A stretch of DNA of 64,000 nt from Coxiellaceae bacterium. GTDB lineage: Bacteria > Pseudomonadota > Gammaproteobacteria > Coxiellales > Coxiellaceae. This document shows positions 24,897 through 59,784 of this stretch, piece after piece (within the stretch, counting starts at the first letter, position 1; each line of letters begins with the position of its first letter). The position numbers and the translations under genes were made by a program. Under the pieces are notes generated by a model. It saw nothing but the letters and a program-made list of their open reading frames with translations. It was not told the DNA's origin and ran no database searches. The stretch lies in the NCBI GenBank assembly GCA_035290065.1, contig DATDVD010000032.1, positions 8,737 to 72,736 of the forward strand. The letters run 5' to 3'.

Positions 24897-26003
24897 TCAA
24901 GGAATCCCTGCAAAGACCATTTCATCCGACAATCTAGCCAAATCCAATCTATTCTGCAATGAGGGTATATATTCTCCCATCGATTGAATAATTTTATCCT
25001 CGTGGAGTTGGTAAGCGATTTGCGTGGCTAATTCATATGCATCCATTCCAAAATACCACGCCGCCACAATATCAATATTATTTTCTTTAAATGCAGTGGC
25101 CAATGAGGAATCGGTAAAGCAATTAATATGACCTAAAGGATCCAGATGCCTAACGATTGAATTCGAGAAAACGCTTTGAATGGTGGTACTCAAACAATTC
25201 CAGCGAGGAACTTCTGCAATAATTAATCCCTCCCGTCCTGATAAGGCCCGAGAAGCTGTCTGTAACATTCTCATAGGTTCAGGCACATGCTCTATAACGC
25301 CCCAAAATGTTATGATGTCGTAATCACAAAATTTTTCCCATTCTTTTAAAAAATTGTTATCCATTAAATCAAAACCAAATTGTTCTTTACAAAAATCCCT
25401 TCCCGATTCACTAATTTCTACTCCATCTGCCTTTATTCCCATTAGTTTGCAGGCTTGAACAAAATGGCCACTGCCTGCCCCTACGTCTAAAATCGAGTTA
25501 GGTTTTCTCTTATAAATTCTTTCAAATTGCTGAATTGCCCATTTTACTTTCGGGATCGCCACTTCCTGAACACGCTTTTCAGTTGTTTTTTTATCGGCAT
25601 AATTGCTTTGATAATGAATATCTCTCGAATAGAATTTATCCAGCGCCTCTTTGGTAGGCCTTGCCTTAACATAATAATGATGACAATCCTGGCAAGCAAC
25701 ATAGTGTGCACCGTAAACAGAAAATACCTCTGGCATAGTTTCTGTTTTAGCCTTACAAATGGGGCACACATCAACATGCTGTAATGCAGAATTTTGATAC
25801 AAAAAGGTTCTTGAATCTTTGATATGAGCAACACTTTTATTAAAATCATTGATGATGCTGAGCTTAAGAGACAAAATATCAATAGGTTTTCCTAATGTAA
25901 CCTCAACCTCATAATTTTTTTGCTTTTCAGAATCCTTACACGTCCAAATTTCTTTCTGATTATTCTGAGACTCGAAAGGAATTGTCATGGTCCATTTATT
26001 CAT
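24897..26003 (-). CDS. class I SAM-dependent methyltransferase with an N-terminal Cys-rich (zinc-ribbon-like) segment
   Basis: SAM motif I ILDVGAGSGHF. An upstream CPICK...CQDCHH pattern is present. Confidence 0.7.
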   Translation of the reverse strand: MNKWTMTIPFESQNNQKEIWTCKDSEKQKNYEVEVTLGKPIDILSLKLSIINDFNKSVAHIKDSRTFLYQNSALQHVDVCPICKAKTETMPEVFSVYGAHYVACQDCHHYYVKARPTKEALDKFYSRDIHYQSNYADKKTTEKRVQEVAIPKVKWAIQQFERIYKRKPNSILDVGAGSGHFVQACKLMGIKADGVEISESGRDFCKEQFGFDLMDNNFLKEWEKFCDYDIITFWGVIEHVPEPMRMLQTASRALSGREGLIIAEVPRWNCLSTTIQSVFSNSIVRHLDPLGHINCFTDSSLATAFKENNIDIVAAWYFGMDAYELATQIAYQLHEDKIIQSMGEYIPSLQNRLDLARLSDEMVFAGIP

Positions 26004-26045
26004 TATGAATCTAGCCTATTGTCTTTAATGGGATTATATCTTACC

Positions 26046-26981
26046 ATGTTGAAGAAATCTACCCAAGTAAAATCAAAGGATAGTCCAGGCATGGTAAAGA
26101 ACATTAAAAATAAATTTCATTATTGGCTTTCTAGATTTGAGAAATTTTTTTGGTCTAAAAAAAATTATAAGTTTTTTATTAAGGACTGGGCATCTCTCCC
26201 AGATCTTCAGAGTTGTGCCGATGTTATTAAAACTATGCGCTTTAGCAACCAACTCACTCCCGTGCAATTAGAGGGTGTAAAAGCTAAGAAAATATTAGTG
26301 ATTAGTCCACACCCTGATGATGAAATATTTGGTGCGGGCGGCGTTCTGATTAAAGCAATTCAAGAGGGGGCTCAAGTTAAAGTAGTATACTTAACCTCTG
26401 GGAAAACCAATACTCAATCGGAAAGAGAAGCCGAAACATTACTAGCTGCTCAATTAATTGGCTATGAAACAGAATTTTTTAGGCAACCTGTTCATGCTAT
26501 CTCCATCGAAAACCCTATGCTTAAAAAATTTTCTCATCTTGTTAATACCTGGCAGCCTGATGCATGTTTTGTATCAGCCCTATTCGATGATCATCCCGAT
26601 CATCGACGAGCAAGCGAATTACTGTATCGAGCTTACCAATCAGGCTATCTTTCTCGAAATATGATGATTTGGGCCTACCAAATTTATTCTATGATTATAC
26701 CTAATGTGATTGTCGATATTACTGATTTTGTTGAATTAAAGAAAAAAGCCATGCACACCTGGGCCACCCAGCTTAAAATCAGAAACTATGCGCATTACAT
26801 TATAGGTCTCAATGCCTTTAATACACGCTTTTTAAACACCACAGGAACGCGCTATGCAGAAACATTTTTTGTGCTACCTTCTGACGAGTATTTGAAATTA
26901 TGCCAAATTTATTTTTCAGGGAAAAATGCTACCGTTTATGAGTCATCTTTGGAATCCAGAGAAAAAGAGCTAATTAATTAG
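26046..26981 (+). CDS. PIG-L/LmbE-family N-acetylglucosaminyl deacetylase
   Basis: VISPHPDDEIFGAGG and DDHPDHRRAS motifs. The start is uncertain (ATG at 26028, 26046 or 26091). The listed 25920 start overlaps the divergent methyltransferase gene and is unlikely. Confidence 0.75.
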   Translation: MLKKSTQVKSKDSPGMVKNIKNKFHYWLSRFEKFFWSKKNYKFFIKDWASLPDLQSCADVIKTMRFSNQLTPVQLEGVKAKKILVISPHPDDEIFGAGGVLIKAIQEGAQVKVVYLTSGKTNTQSEREAETLLAAQLIGYETEFFRQPVHAISIENPMLKKFSHLVNTWQPDACFVSALFDDHPDHRRASELLYRAYQSGYLSRNMMIWAYQIYSMIIPNVIVDITDFVELKKKAMHTWATQLKIRNYAHYIIGLNAFNTRFLNTTGTRYAETFFVLPSDEYLKLCQIYFSGKNATVYESSLESREKELIN

Positions 26982-28015
26982 ACCAATTTAAAATCACCGT
27001 AGGAAAACAAACCAGGAAACTTTTCCTCAAAAATTTTTCTTTCACTGGAAACAATAAGGTATTGTTGATAAGTTTTTTTTGTCAATTCAAATTTATTTTG
27101 ACTCCATAGCGACTCAAGAGAACTTGAAATAATTTTTGTATTCAGATAAACGCAATATATTTTTTTGGCCAGGACAATAGCAGCGGAAAGCAATTGTTTC
27201 TGAGCAAGAATATCATCGGGAGTAACAATAAACTCACAGATTCTAGCAGAAGATTGAATTTTCTGAATAATCGCTAATCCAAGCAGTTTTCTTCCTTGTC
27301 TTATCTCAATATAAAAATAATGGGATGAAAAGGGGGAATCTAAATAACGCCATTTTAAATAATCGAACTTCTTTTCTATACTACAAAAAGGTACCTTACA
27401 TTGAGAAAGAAAAATTTTTTCAATACTTATTATGTCATCAAAACTAATTTCTGAAAGAAAGTTAATTTTTCCAAATTTAACAAAAAAATCCTGTCTCTTT
27501 AATTGATAAGATGTGAAATTATTCAACCGGGGTTTTATTATTTTTTGAAAAATTTTGTTCTTAAGGCTAACACATTTTTGAAATGTCTTTTCACTATCCT
27601 GCATGAAAGAAGCCCCATAACGCGCCCACAGGGCATGTACTGCTTCTGAAGCATGAGGTGTAATTAAAAGTTCAGTGGGCGCATTTTTAATGCAATAATT
27701 TGAAAAAAATAAAGTGTTTTTGAGCGAGCACCCTACAAAGGCACAAAAATCTGAACCGGATGCAACAATGATTCTTTTATCTCTAAAAATAAAAGGTAAA
27801 TAGGTAAAAATAATGGAGGCCATTAATTTCGAATTTTGATACAAACCATAACCAATAGGCTGACCCTCTCTAAAGGGATTATTCAACAAATTCCATCGCA
27901 TGAACTGAAGCCAATTATCATACCCCCATTGCAAATACAGCTTTTTCTCTTGCAAACTGGCTAATAGTGAAGGCGATAATTGTTCGAATACTAGGGGTTT
28001 GATTTCTGTAGTCAT
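26978..28015 (-). CDS. hypothetical protein, possibly a GNAT/FemAB-like acyltransferase
   Basis: 345-aa ORF. The C-terminal segment (LLGLAIIQKIQSSARICEFIV...QLLSAAIVLAKK) is GNAT-like. The family assignment is weak. Confidence 0.4.
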   Translation of the reverse strand: MTTEIKPLVFEQLSPSLLASLQEKKLYLQWGYDNWLQFMRWNLLNNPFREGQPIGYGLYQNSKLMASIIFTYLPFIFRDKRIIVASGSDFCAFVGCSLKNTLFFSNYCIKNAPTELLITPHASEAVHALWARYGASFMQDSEKTFQKCVSLKNKIFQKIIKPRLNNFTSYQLKRQDFFVKFGKINFLSEISFDDIISIEKIFLSQCKVPFCSIEKKFDYLKWRYLDSPFSSHYFYIEIRQGRKLLGLAIIQKIQSSARICEFIVTPDDILAQKQLLSAAIVLAKKIYCVYLNTKIISSSLESLWSQNKFELTKKTYQQYLIVSSERKIFEEKFPGLFSYGDFKLV

Positions 28016-58768: not shown

Positions 58769-58773
58769 CGTAT

Positions 58774-59754
58774 TCAGACCTCAAGGGCTTTTATTCTATA
58801 AGATTGTGTCACAGCTTCCAGCACTTTTACCACCCTCAATCCCTCATAACCATCAGTAATGGGCCGTCTATTATTTTTTATACATTCGAGAAAATGGCTA
58901 TTTTCGCACCATAAAGGCTCTTTTTGAGGCACCTCTATCGCTTCAGCTTTCGTCTTAATAAGGCTGGTAATGCCTGCTTCTCGCTCGATATGACCTCGGT
59001 ATACAGACAGCTTATGAGGCCAATCCAAGCCATCATTAAACACCAACATCCCCTTTTCTCCTAATATTACCAACCGGTGCTCTTTATAAGGATGCAACCA
59101 AGAAACAAATATATGCGCTTTTATGTTCTTGCGAAAAGCAAGGTGAGTAATGGTAATATCATAATTCTCTCTATTGAGATAAGAAGAACCTTCTGCTGTT
59201 ATTTCAATGGGCTCCTCATTAACTAACGATAGAATAAGGGAAATATCGTGAGGTGCAAAACTCCACAATATATTCTCTTCTGTCCGAAGCCTTCCAAAAT
59301 TAAGGCGATTAGAGTAAATATAGTGGAGTTGGCCTATTACTCCTTCCTTAATGATTCTTTTCAACGTCACAAAAGCAGGATGATACTGTAATAAATGGCC
59401 TACCATCAACGTTTTACGGTGATGATCGGCTAATCGACACAGATATTCCGCCTGTTTCACATTCATCGTCATAGGCTTTTCCACTAGGACATGTTTGCCT
59501 GCTTTCAAAGCCTCTACAGTCAAAGAATAATGGGTGGGGGTAGAAGCAGCAATGACAATGGCATCAATTTTCTTGTCTGATAAAATAGTAGCGTAAGAAT
59601 AGGCCGGGACATTAAGGGAGGATTGTATTTGTCGTGATAAATCTTCATTAATATCACAAATCGCCGCCAGAACTCCTAATTGTTTTAATACCCTAGCGTG
59701 CTGAAACCCCCAAAAACCGCACCCTATAAGCGCTACCCTTAATCGGCTCCCCAT
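58774..59754 (-). CDS. Gfo/Idh/MocA-family oxidoreductase (WbpB-like nucleotide-sugar 3-dehydrogenase)
   Basis: LRVALIGCGFWG and VEKP motifs. I prefer the ATG at 59754 (GAGGA lies 5 nt upstream) to 59766. Confidence 0.72.
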   Translation of the reverse strand: MGSRLRVALIGCGFWGFQHARVLKQLGVLAAICDINEDLSRQIQSSLNVPAYSYATILSDKKIDAIVIAASTPTHYSLTVEALKAGKHVLVEKPMTMNVKQAEYLCRLADHHRKTLMVGHLLQYHPAFVTLKRIIKEGVIGQLHYIYSNRLNFGRLRTEENILWSFAPHDISLILSLVNEEPIEITAEGSSYLNRENYDITITHLAFRKNIKAHIFVSWLHPYKEHRLVILGEKGMLVFNDGLDWPHKLSVYRGHIEREAGITSLIKTKAEAIEVPQKEPLWCENSHFLECIKNNRRPITDGYEGLRVVKVLEAVTQSYRIKALEV

Positions 59755-59784
59755 CGTTTTCCTCATCTTCCTATAAGATGCCCC

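Follow-up and report, generated by a model that had tools for sequence, protein, structure and literature searches.

The GDP-linked route to CMP-legionaminic acid follows the Schoenhofen 2009 scheme. The lipopolysaccharide (LPS) locus of Legionella pneumophila reportedly extends from lpg0748 to lpg0779 and is said to have been described by Luneberg in 2000 and by Petzold in 2013. In Plesiomonas, Vibrio and Escherichia coli, the published legionaminic acid (Leg) cluster encodes PtmA, LegF, PtmF, PtmE, LegH, LegI, LegG, LegC and LegB (PMC4481668). In the L. pneumophila LPS locus, NeuC, NeuB and NeuA are present, open reading frame (ORF) 28 is a PtmG homologue, ORF 9 is a NeuB-family gene adjoining ORF 8 within a predicted operon of ORF 8-12, and the GC content is lower than that of the genome; ORF 8 is a methyltransferase required for the N-methylated 5-acetimidoyl group of legionaminic acid (PMC3766260). 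In this study, we analyzed a 64-kb stretch of DNA from a Coxiellaceae bacterium (the window), in which an island at 24897-59766 carries genes of both kinds of system. We consider it probable that the island is a surface-polysaccharide locus, in the first place one for an LPS O-antigen, and that it is partly related to the L. pneumophila LPS locus.

Pfam scans covered the island ORFs and four genes bordering the island, and the left flank was judged by reading its ORF translations. Curated NCBIfam cutoffs were used for gene calls, and PDB sequence and profile searches were added for selected proteins. A profile of the family of u510, an island protein described below, was scanned against 185,579 species genomes, giving 23 loci onto which all island proteins were mapped by tblastn; each recovered locus (numbered with L) takes in 10 kb on each side of its u510 homologue, hence none covers the entire conserved block discussed below. 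The ORF map and hidden Markov model (HMM) scans bore out the coordinates and organization of the dense glycan island of about 35 kb delimited in the initial annotation, and Pfam and NCBIfam confirmed nearly all of the genes named there. The minus strand holds exactly 24 co-directional ORFs from 59766 to 36059 (25 if the glycosyltransferase gene at 34857-36047 is counted), the same number as had been claimed, closely spaced at -70 to +22 nt with a single exception, a 103-nt gap. The left arm, which had been called a patchwork, indeed shows alternating gene orientations.

Judged from sequence, the island encodes all the enzyme families that the GDP-linked route to CMP-legionaminic acid calls for. 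These genes, listed together with two further reductase genes, are as follows (SDR, short-chain dehydrogenase/reductase):

56045-57061, minus strand: LegB-type NAD-dependent 4,6-dehydratase (TIGR04180, E 1.5e-141, 470.7 bits, cutoff 475; PseB model 76 bits)
54840-56042, minus strand: LegC-family aminotransferase (TIGR04181, 458 bits, cutoff 420; PseC 236 bits, cutoff 423)
53783-54853, minus strand: CBS-domain sugar-1-phosphate nucleotidyltransferase, PtmE type (Pfam CBS and NTP_transferase)
53077-53790, minus strand: CMP-nonulosonate synthetase 1, LegF/PtmB position (Pfam CTP_transf_3; PseF 117 bits, below cutoff)
52296-53123, minus strand: SDR, PtmA-like (Pfam adh_short_C2; 65-67% identity to syntenic genes of L009, L010 and L023)
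51382-52365, minus strand: Gfo/Idh/MocA-like oxidoreductase, PtmF-like (Pfam GFO_IDH_MocA, E 1.3e-9; syntenic homologues at 45-50% identity)
50583-51395, minus strand: SDR2, a second SDR (Pfam adh_short_C2; 58-63% identity in seven loci)
57052-58083, minus strand: Gfo/Idh/MocA oxidoreductase GFO_b (Pfam GFO_IDH_MocA, E 1.5e-20)
36805-37470, minus strand: NeuD/PglD-family N-acetyltransferase, LegH position (TIGR03570, 210 bits, cutoff 161; Pfam PglD_N and Hexapep)
30372-31553, minus strand: NeuC, hydrolysing NDP-sugar 2-epimerase, LegG type (TIGR03568, 450 bits)
29320-30399, minus strand: NeuB1, canonical nonulosonate synthase, LegI position (TIGR03569, a model that cannot tell Neu5Ac from Leg synthases, 445 bits, cutoff 400; IEKHF motif)

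The legionaminic acid reading is supported because curated HMMs match each step and NeuC is of the LegG type; the gene content also agrees with that of published Leg clusters, and the Campylobacter-type GDP-linked pathway named in the initial annotation is therefore supported. The best PDB match of NeuC was the LegG of A. baumannii (5zlr/5xvs, GDP/UDP-N,N'-diacetylbacillosamine 2-epimerase (hydrolyzing), E 1e-106, 360 bits); the match to human GNE had 178 bits. The CBS-nucleotidyltransferase is alike in architecture and size to PtmE of published Leg clusters, which has 352 aa (PMC4481668). The PtmE, PtmA and PtmF calls, and with them GDP as the nucleotide, are putative and follow from agreement in domain architecture, size and neighborhood. 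The start of the PtmA-like SDR is uncertain (273 aa in metagenome records), and the PtmF-like gene is called as 304-306 aa in such records. CMP-synthetase 1 shares 56-58% identity with genes in the same place in L009, L010 and L023 (tblastn), and homologues of GFO_b at 49-52% identity head a ptm-like block in L010 and L023. No pgmL mutase was found in the window.

The acetamidino module that had been proposed, WbuX with HisH and HisF, was recovered, with WbuX and HisH above their cutoffs and a HisF/WbuZ paralogue beside them. Together with a methyltransferase (SAM, S-adenosylmethionine), the genes are:

49248-50561, minus strand: WbuX/PtmG-type N-acetyl sugar amidotransferase, PP-loop (TIGR03573, E 1.4e-106, 357 bits, cutoff 203)
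38067-38852, minus strand: HisF paralogue, WbuZ type, cyclase-like subunit (WbuZ model TIGR03572, 287 bits, cutoff 300; HisF 270 bits, cutoff 295)
37460-38089, minus strand: HisH paralogue, WbuY type, glutaminase subunit (TIGR01855, 189 bits, cutoff 105)
46007-46741, minus strand: SAM methyltransferase (Pfam Methyltransf_12/25; 43-50% identity in the conserved cassette)

WbuX is 63-70% identical across 11 related loci, and the HisF paralogue is 61% identical to the gene in the same place in L021, L023 and L026. Of the seven loci with SDR2, six have WbuX, and in all of these SDR2 lies directly upstream of it; L007 is the exception. In Legionella loci, the methyltransferase homologue adjoins NeuB2, the second synthase described below. 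By analogy with ORF 8 of L. pneumophila and with PtmH, the island methyltransferase is the probable N-methylase of the acetamidino group.

Two genes not yet listed bear on assembly and export (TMD-NBD, transmembrane domain and nucleotide-binding domain; GT4, glycosyltransferase family 4):

47446-49251, minus strand: ABC exporter with fused TMD-NBD, 601 aa, MsbA/PglK/HepA-like half-transporter (Pfam ABC_membrane and ABC_tran)
34857-36047, minus strand: GT4 glycosyltransferase (Pfam Glycos_transf_1/Glyco_trans_1_4)

The initial annotation had reported that Wzx/Wzy, Wzm/Wzt, WaaL and an initiating transferase were missing. They were truly not found, but the ABC exporter had been overlooked, and with it present the locus is less incomplete than was stated. 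For Wzm with Wzt and Wzx with Wzy there was no Pfam match among the scanned ORFs, and the unfamiliar proteins appeared soluble, with 0-2 hydrophobic segments. Likewise, wecA, wzm/wzt, rml and lag-1 had no family match in the island and its four flanking genes and were not evident in the left-flank translations. The exporter has five hydrophobic segments. Its NCBIfam scores (MsbA 244 bits, PglK 239 bits) are far under the cutoffs of 600-1000, and on these scores it is not an orthologue of MsbA or PglK. It lies between WbuX and CMP-synthetase 2 in five loci and beside one of them in five others (29-41% identity), and we propose it as the glycolipid flippase.

Considering the above, we have drawn up a plausible model for the island, in which the predicted glycan product rests on gene content. 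The PtmA/PtmF-like reductases and the PtmE nucleotidyltransferase would make GDP-GlcNAc, after which LegB would dehydrate, LegC aminate and the NeuD/PglD enzyme acetylate the GDP-sugar. The LegG-type NeuC would then release a 2-epimerised hexose for condensation with phosphoenolpyruvate (PEP) by NeuB and activation by the CMP-synthetase. The main donor would be CMP-Leg5Am7Ac, partly N-methylated, and a GnnA/WbpB-like dehydrogenase with a WlbB/WbpD-type acetyltransferase may supply a 2,3-diacetamido hexose as second component. The GT4 enzyme and four GT-B proteins (u374, u476, u510 and u465) would build the glycan on a lipid carrier, with the primer enzyme presumably encoded elsewhere. The ABC half-transporter would flip the lipid-linked product in the manner of PglK or Wzk, ligation to lipid A-core would come next, and the PIG-L protein, the second methyltransferase and a radical SAM enzyme may tailor the product; of the deacetylase/formyltransferase pair, deacetylation alone looks functional.

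The O-antigen reading draws on the HMM match at each step, the ABC exporter, the Coxiellaceae source, the collinearity with Legionella, the lack of Maf, flagellar and Kps genes among the genes inspected, the GT-B folds of u510 and u374, and the HP motif that u476 has in common with them. The same genes could instead form a protein-glycosylation island (flagellin, pilin, or general O- or N-linked), in which CMP-Leg or a PglK-flipped oligosaccharide is put on proteins, and we regard this as quite unlikely. PtmA, PtmE, PtmF, LegB, LegC, PtmG and a PtmH-like protein are the set known for flagellin glycosylation in Campylobacter and Plesiomonas (PMC4481668). The exporter's second-best curated match is PglK, an N-glycosylation flippase, close behind MsbA, and WaaL, Wzz and Wzm/Wzt were not found in the window. 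However, the PglK score is far under the equivalog cutoff of 1000 bits and about equal to that of MsbA, and no Maf/PF01973, flagellar, pilin, oligosaccharyltransferase or Kps gene was found in the Pfam-scanned ORFs or evident in the left-flank translations. Moreover, the Legionella homologues of the core genes reside in an LPS locus near wecA, rml and wzt, and five putative glycosyltransferases suit a polymer or oligosaccharide better than single-sugar decoration of proteins.

Several points nevertheless weigh against an O-antigen made by this route. The GDP-route Leg cluster is familiar mainly from the glycosylation of flagellin in Campylobacter and Plesiomonas, and in L. pneumophila itself the route runs through UDP-bacillosamine. 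The LegB score was 4 bits short of the curated cutoff. An aminotransferase is missing from the 3-amino sugar branch, there being no second DegT aminotransferase in the window. An initiating transferase, WaaL, a chain-length regulator and Wzm/Wzt were likewise not found in the window, and the linkage to lipid A is one that we infer. Finally, the transferase role of the GT-B proteins derives from fold and a short motif, and the structures closest to u374 are epimerases rather than transferases.

The comparative evidence centers on the segment at 36.8-53.8 kb, which is not a random patchwork, since distant loci keep large parts of it in the same relative order: (GFO_b)-(PtmE)-CMP-synthetase 1-PtmA-PtmF-SDR2-WbuX-ABC-CMP-synthetase 2-methyltransferase-NeuB2-kinase-u374-(u476)-u510-GFO_c-HisF-HisH-NeuD. 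Overlapping parts of this block of about 17 kb and about 18 genes occur in Legionella, Alphaproteobacteria, Burkholderiales, Acidobacteriota and Actinomycetota. It is nearly full in a Burkholderiales MAG (metagenome-assembled genome; L021) and an alphaproteobacterial MAG (L028), while Bradyrhizobium (L012) and Thalassospira (L014, L024) have central-to-downstream sections of it. Devosia, Asaia and Hwanghaeella carry rearranged forms, and short forms without the segment from CMP-synthetase 2 to u476 occur in Vicinamibacteria (L010) and Acidimicrobiia (L023). The constant partner of u510 is:

38875-39819, minus strand: GFO_c, Gfo/Idh/MocA oxidoreductase (Pfam GFO_IDH_MocA; 48-59% identity in 23/23 loci)

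GFO_c was present in all 23 loci and directly downstream of the u510 homologue in 22 of the 22 that include u510.

The Legionella loci (L007, L008, L022, L025) run u510-GFO_c-WbuX-CMP-synthetase 2-methyltransferase-NeuB2-kinase-u374-u465. Comparison with the Legionella LPS cluster, a course suggested in the initial annotation, thus yielded collinear homologues: the eight core genes (u510, GFO_c, WbuX, CMP-synthetase 2, methyltransferase, NeuB2, kinase and u374) are 31-70% identical and collinear in L. quateirensis, L. pneumophila subsp. fraseri, L. norrlandica and L. worsleiensis. On an L. pneumophila chromosome, the u510-GFO_c pair stands directly downstream of wzt, rmlCDB, rmlA and wecA, with u510 right after wecA, which places the pair in the LPS locus.

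Two related loci showed further features. In L032 (L. pneumophila CM136859.1, 837338-858966), the part of the LPS locus downstream of u510-GFO_c holds a PseG-like gene (Glyco_tran_28_C), NeuB/SAF, GNAT and CMP-synthetase genes, two methyltransferase genes, WbqC and one Capsule_synth-like gene; this set looks closer to pseudaminic than to legionaminic acid. In Thalassospira tepidiphila (L024, 12455-21290), a wbp-like block past the shared cassette encodes an NHL-repeat protein, NeuD, an AsnB-type amidotransferase, HisH, HisF, a second PP-loop amidotransferase, a GT4, a Gfo-like dehydrogenase and a WlbB-like acetyltransferase, and L024 therefore holds two amidotransferase systems.

Within the conserved block lies a sub-module of three genes that the initial annotation had overlooked:

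44887-45996, minus strand: NeuB2, divergent NeuB-family synthase with SAF domain (Pfam NeuB and SAF; NeuB 165 bits, cutoff 400; PseI 162 bits, cutoff 340)
46710-47459, minus strand: CMP-nonulosonate synthetase 2 (Pfam CTP_transf_3; PseF 145 bits, below cutoff)
43911-44915, minus strand: small-molecule kinase, APH/eukaryotic-like-kinase fold (Pfam APH, weak)

NeuB2 is only 23% identical to NeuB1, and its homologues share 53-61% identity across phyla. In an alignment of 11 NeuB2-clade sequences with NeuB1, PEP- and substrate-binding positions were conserved in the clade, including Lys57, Lys138, the histidine of LSDH, Glu243-Lys244 and Arg300 of the SAF domain. The histidine of the E-K-H motif, which we take to be the second metal ligand of N. 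meningitidis NeuB, is Gly in every NeuB2-clade member of the alignment and likewise in a more distant member from a Halioglobus MAG (12 sequences, at least four phyla). Because this replacement runs throughout the clade, the predicted metal site must differ from that of NeuB, LegI and PseI. CMP-synthetase 2 is 30% identical to synthetase 1 and 40-48% identical to its counterparts in the conserved cassette. The kinase family gave profile matches to YihE (E 1e-10), amicoumacin kinase, fructosamine-3-kinase and maltokinase, with the motifs HGDLNPGN (HGDxxxxN) and DFED invariant. A search of a plasmid collection with NeuB2 returned only PseI/NeuB at no more than 31% identity, with no NeuB2-clade member and no annotated context, and a literature search by lpg number for lpg0766-0769 revealed no role for any counterpart of NeuB2, the kinase or the GT-B proteins.

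Downstream of the kinase, the block continues with GT-B proteins. Four mutually related ones, without a Pfam family, occur in the island and had likewise escaped the initial annotation:

42790-43914, minus strand: u374, GT-B fold, RPHPRE motif (AlphaFold2 (AF2) model, predicted local distance difference test (pLDDT) 93; some homologues carry PF04464)
41356-42786, minus strand: u476, GT-B-like, K-x-HP-x-E motif (weak similarity only, to the C-terminal part of Epimerase_2/NeuC)
39831-41363, minus strand: u510, GT-B fold, PED..G and RPHPN motifs (AF2 pLDDT 83, generic GT-B fold)
33491-34888, plus strand: u465, GT-B-like u510 paralogue, SEDG and HP motifs (27% identity to u510, E 5e-29)

All four are soluble. 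Searches with u510, u476, u374 and u289 (a left-arm protein, see below) in Pfam (E<=5), NCBIfam and PDB (sequence and profile) gave nothing significant, and u465 likewise matched no Pfam, NCBIfam or PDB sequence. Profile-profile comparison linked the C-terminal domains of u374, u510 and u476, whose invariant R/K-x-H-P motifs (RPHPRE, RPHPN, KxHPxE) align; with u374, hhalign gave 86% probability for u510 and 62% for u476. A single-sequence search found four homologues of u374 and a profile search 27, the latter enough for a confident model. The u510 family has 263 homologues at E<=1e-3, of which the best named are hypothetical proteins at 43-56% identity in L. pneumophila (several serogroups), L. 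quateirensis, L. cardiaca and L. norrlandica; to the hypothetical proteins in the related loci of L. pneumophila, L. quateirensis, L. worsleiensis and L. norrlandica the identity is 44-58%. The u510 model matched 2-epimerases, plant UGTs and TagF about equally, and the TagF-like PF04464 domain is carried by some u510 and u374 homologues. The u476 family, an unannotated one, has 744 representative clusters at E<=1e-3; u476 occurs in alphaproteobacterial cassettes (26-29% identity) and is absent from those of Legionella. Homologues of u465 at 32-43% identity were seen in most related loci. The four proteins are probably a GT-B glycosyltransferase family using CMP- or CDP-linked donors, with u374 as a candidate CMP-sugar glycosyltransferase.

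The sub-module could be taken for a self-contained second ulosonic acid pathway through a phosphorylated intermediate, like animal GNE/NANS, in which u374 acts as hydrolysing 2-epimerase, the kinase acts on the free sugar, NeuB2 condenses the product with PEP, and CMP-synthetase 2 activates it. The confident u374 model is nearest to UDP-GlcNAc 2-epimerases in Foldseek (the top matches, at template modeling (TM) scores of 0.70-0.73; 16 of the 17 best at TM about 0.7), the order NeuB2, kinase, u374 is directly kept in 14 of the 15 loci having all three, the catalytic motifs of the kinase are intact and its likeness is to small-molecule and sugar kinases, the NeuB2 metal site is altered (EKH to EKG), and a dedicated CMP-synthetase is adjacent. 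In contrast, u374 is related by profile to u510 and u476 and not to the NeuC of the window, no phosphatase was seen in the cassette, and Leg-type precursors are 6-deoxy sugars with no 6-OH available for phosphorylation. In addition, L031 holds u374 with u510/u465-like genes and GFO_c but neither NeuB2 nor the kinase. In the Halioglobus locus L030, the NeuB2-type enzyme is the sole synthase within 10 kb of a canonical NeuC, LegC, PtmE and one CMP-synthetase, which suggests that enzymes of this type can serve an ordinary Leg-like route. On this balance we find the phosphorylated pathway improbable. The hhalign links, the lack of relation to NeuC and the L031 context all weaken the idea that u374 is a NeuC-like epimerase dedicated to NeuB2, and a transferase role is favored for u374 because L031 has it without NeuB2 or kinase.

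We prefer to read NeuB2, CMP-synthetase 2 and the kinase as a conserved sub-module that makes or handles a second, modified nonulosonate; two synthase/activator pairs are carried by both the window and Legionella. An HP-motif GT-B enzyme may transfer that second nonulosonate, with the kinase phosphorylating afterwards. A bolder version, in which the block, spread over at least four phyla, specifies a second ulosonic acid of different chemistry (for example one whose synthesis passes through a phosphate or which carries one) and a new family of CMP-nonulosonate glycosyltransferases, is offered tentatively and is rather unlikely. If it were true, the new family would be the long-sought legionaminic acid transferases or polymerases, and such a pathway could explain unassigned CMP-ulosonic acids detected by mass spectrometry in environmental bacteria.

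The AT-rich center (39.8-44.9 kb) seen in the initial annotation was confirmed, and composition is not uniform: GC is 0.29-0.35 at 40-45 kb and 0.40-0.43 at 50-60 kb. The values, with GC3 as GC at third codon positions, are:

Background genes: GC 0.425, GC3 0.384 +/- 0.037
Right arm: GC 0.412, GC3 0.348
44.9-50.6 kb: GC 0.375, GC3 0.309
Center (u510, u476, u374, kinase): GC 0.317, GC3 0.252
36.1-39.8 kb: GC 0.380, GC3 0.283
Left arm: GC 0.362, GC3 0.296

A mosaic origin had been suggested from this heterogeneity, which is real; the AT-rich center, however, lies within an order-conserved block and does not match an optional module. It is doubtful, in our judgment, that the center (about 39.8-44.9 kb) was recently inserted from an AT-richer donor into an existing Leg cluster. 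Its genes do stand out (GC 0.31-0.33, GC3 0.22-0.27) from the background and the right arm, and the short-form loci L010 and L023 run from the ABC gene directly to u510, so that the segment from CMP-synthetase 2 to u476 behaves as an optional module. Yet the gene order of 36.8-53.8 kb recurs in L021 (Burkholderiales), in L012, L024 and L028 (Alphaproteobacteria) and in others, which makes the center part of an old block. The low-GC stretch and the optional module (41.4-47.5 kb) do not coincide, NeuB2 (GC 0.414) lying inside the module and u510 (0.312) outside it. No tRNA, integrase, transposase or Rfam element was found at any junction in the Rfam and tRNA scans and the Pfam-scanned ORFs. GC also trends with protein conservation across the cassette, weakly and contaminated by paralogue matches (Spearman 0.45, p 0.06), and the entire L. 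pneumophila LPS locus is GC-poor as well (PMC3766260). A modular, horizontally exchanged cassette is therefore supported, and a recent insertion of exactly the AT-rich center is not.

The remaining island genes include candidates for the second sugar and for tailoring steps:

58774-59766, minus strand: Gfo/Idh/MocA oxidoreductase, UDP-GlcNAc 3-dehydrogenase-like, "WbpB-like" (Pfam GFO_IDH_MocA, N and C domains)
58187-58768, minus strand: WlbB/WbpD-type sugar 3-N-acetyltransferase, 193 aa, left-handed beta-helix (Pfam Hexapep; PDB 3mqg)
36059-36808, minus strand: right-handed beta-helix protein (Pfam Beta_helix, E 3e-11; lowest-GC island gene, 0.288)
32431-33444, minus strand: radical SAM/SPASM enzyme (Pfam Radical_SAM and SPASM; 59-66% identity in L009, L011, L013, L015 and L017)
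31558-32427, minus strand: u289, conserved 289-aa protein (no Pfam, NCBIfam or PDB match; 36-54% identity in L008, L009, L011, L013 and L015)
28824-29165, plus strand: truncated formyltransferase, 113 aa (Pfam Formyl_trans_N, profile positions 91-175 of 181)
28024-28674, plus strand: 216-aa protein (no Pfam or NCBIfam match at E<=5)
26978-28015, minus strand: 345-aa protein (no family match)
25920-26981, plus strand: PIG-L family de-N-acetylase (Pfam PIG-L, residues 126-238; NCBIfam BshB1-like 90 bits, below cutoff)
24897-26003, minus strand: SAM methyltransferase with N-terminal extension (Pfam Methyltransf_23, residues 164-314)

The WbpD-like enzyme of the initial annotation held up, its acetyltransferase matching 3mqg (a 192-residue "lipopolysaccharides biosynthesis acetyltransferase", presumably WlbB of Bordetella petrii) over residues 10-171 (E 1.3e-57, 198 bits); homologues at 54-56% identity occur at the end of the Thalassospira loci L014 and L024. 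The WbpB-like call stood in part: the protein is of the Gfo/Idh/MocA family and UDP-GlcNAc 3-dehydrogenase is its best NCBIfam family, but at 163 bits it falls far under the cutoff of 450, and its best PDB match was 7bvj, an "Oxidoreductase, NAD-binding" (E 6e-25). The Plesiomonas Leg cluster is headed by a GlmU-like GDP-GlcN acetyltransferase (PMC4481668); such a role for the gene at 58187-58768 was rejected, 3mqg matching at E 1e-57 and GlmU at E 1e-6.

Pfam confirmed the GT4, PIG-L and two methyltransferase genes named in the initial annotation. The radical SAM/SPASM enzyme, the beta-helix protein, NeuB2, CMP-synthetase 2, the kinase, the exporter and the four GT-B proteins were the genes missed there. 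The radical SAM gene stands beside a u289 homologue in L009, L011, L013 and L015 and not in L017; with a u465-type GT-B gene the two form an adjacent trio in L011, L013 and L015, are more dispersed in L009, and occur without u289 in L017. This recurring trio suggests a radical tailoring step on the glycan or a sugar. A decayed formyltransferase had been noted: the fragment keeps the C-terminal half of the catalytic domain only, the N-terminal half was in none of the upstream frames, and the gene is probably an inactive pseudogene. The claimed cupin, probably the ORF at 28024-28674, failed to find support, even at E<=5. The PIG-L ORF has a TTG start and overlaps the divergent methyltransferase by 84 nt (25920-26003); since its domain begins only at about residue 124-126, the true start is probably further downstream.

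The island is bordered by housekeeping genes, on the left by FKBP and rhomboid genes (23.3-24.4 kb) and on the right by PgeF/YfiH and an FMN reductase (59.8-61.2 kb). The left flank encodes aconitase, DsbD, an LssB/LssD-like type I secretion system, an RTX-repeat protein, AccBC and a Mip-like FKBP, which fits a member of the Legionellales. The secretion set (3334-10482 of the window) comprises an HlyD-like protein (3334-4698), two LssB-like ABC proteins (4695-8596) and, adjoining them, a protein of 619 aa whose N-terminal half is rich in Pro/Thr/Ser and which contains many GGxGxD (RTX) repeats; its gene has the highest GC of the window, 0.526. Upstream of the island (21290-22792 and 14086-16294) lie several ORFs of 194-500 aa without evident function, the one of 500 aa having no NCBIfam match and looking hydrophobic near its C-terminus. 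Rfam and tRNA scans of the whole window found no element and no tRNA gene. GenBank proteins on the contig include HLD16395, HLD16412, HLD16427 and HLD16430 (exact-sequence match; Coxiellaceae MAG), and near-identical contigs are present in several ENA and Logan assemblies.

Nonulosonic acids on the bacterial surface influence serotype, resistance to complement and the way in which phages and amoebae recognize the cell, and the present locus extends the Legionella-type legionaminic acid glycan system to an uncultured Coxiellaceae lineage. Its combination of a Campylobacter-type GDP route, Legionella-type assembly genes and a PglK/MsbA-like exporter illustrates module shuffling. The comparative block is possibly more useful than the island, as its NeuB2, kinase, GFO_c and HP-motif GT-B genes are without assigned function, and the L. 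pneumophila counterparts are cultivable, genetically tractable targets in the search for legionaminic acid transferases or polymerases.

Compared with known systems, the island shares a PP-loop amidotransferase and HisH/HisF paralogues in an O-antigen locus with E. coli O145 (WbuX/WbuY/WbuZ) and P. aeruginosa O5 (WbpG/HisH2/HisF2). Its substrate, however, is presumed to be a nonulosonate and theirs are FucNAc or ManNAc3NAcA, and its WbuX lies 11 kb away from HisH/HisF, a split that is also kept in L021 and L023. As with PglK of C. jejuni, Wzk of H. pylori and MsbA, a one-polypeptide TMD-NBD exporter sits inside a glycan locus without Wzx or Wzm/Wzt, although the island exporter reaches only about 240 bits against cutoffs of 600-1000. 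In Ca. Kuenenia stuttgartiensis, a deacetylase and a formyltransferase among the leg genes have been linked to free-amine and N-formyl CMP-nonulosonates (SugarBase preprint 10.64898/2026.04.20.719630). The island likewise has de-N-acetylase and formyltransferase genes among its leg genes, but the formyltransferase is probably an inactive fragment and PIG-L alone looks intact.

With the ptm-leg clusters of Campylobacter jejuni and C. coli and the clusters of Plesiomonas, Vibrio and E. coli, the island has in common the LegB, LegC, LegH, LegG, LegI, LegF, PtmA, PtmE, PtmF, PtmG and PtmH families and the predicted products CMP-Leg5Ac7Ac, Leg5Am7Ac and its N-methyl form (PMC4481668; PMC3766260 citing McNally 2007). 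It differs in that no Maf or flagellar genes were found in it, and in its additional ABC exporter, five putative glycosyltransferases, second synthase/activator pair, kinase and HisH/HisF. The likeness to the L. pneumophila LPS locus, which belongs to the same bacterial order and is also GC-poor, includes NeuC, NeuB and CMP-synthetase, NeuD, a PtmG/WbuX amidotransferase, an N-methyltransferase beside a second NeuB-family gene, and homologues of u510, GFO_c, the kinase and u374. In contrast to that locus, the island has GDP-route LegB, LegC, PtmE, PtmA and PtmF instead of UDP-bacillosamine precursors, an MsbA/PglK-type half-transporter in place of Wzm/Wzt, no wecA, rml or lag-1 in the window, and an extra u476 (otherwise seen in alphaproteobacterial versions) along with HisH/HisF paralogues. 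The L. pneumophila product is a homopolymer of 5-acetamidino-legionaminic acid, and that of the island is predicted from its genes. The island is probably a further case of a Legionella-type nonulosonic acid O-antigen locus, and as such it would not surprise a specialist.

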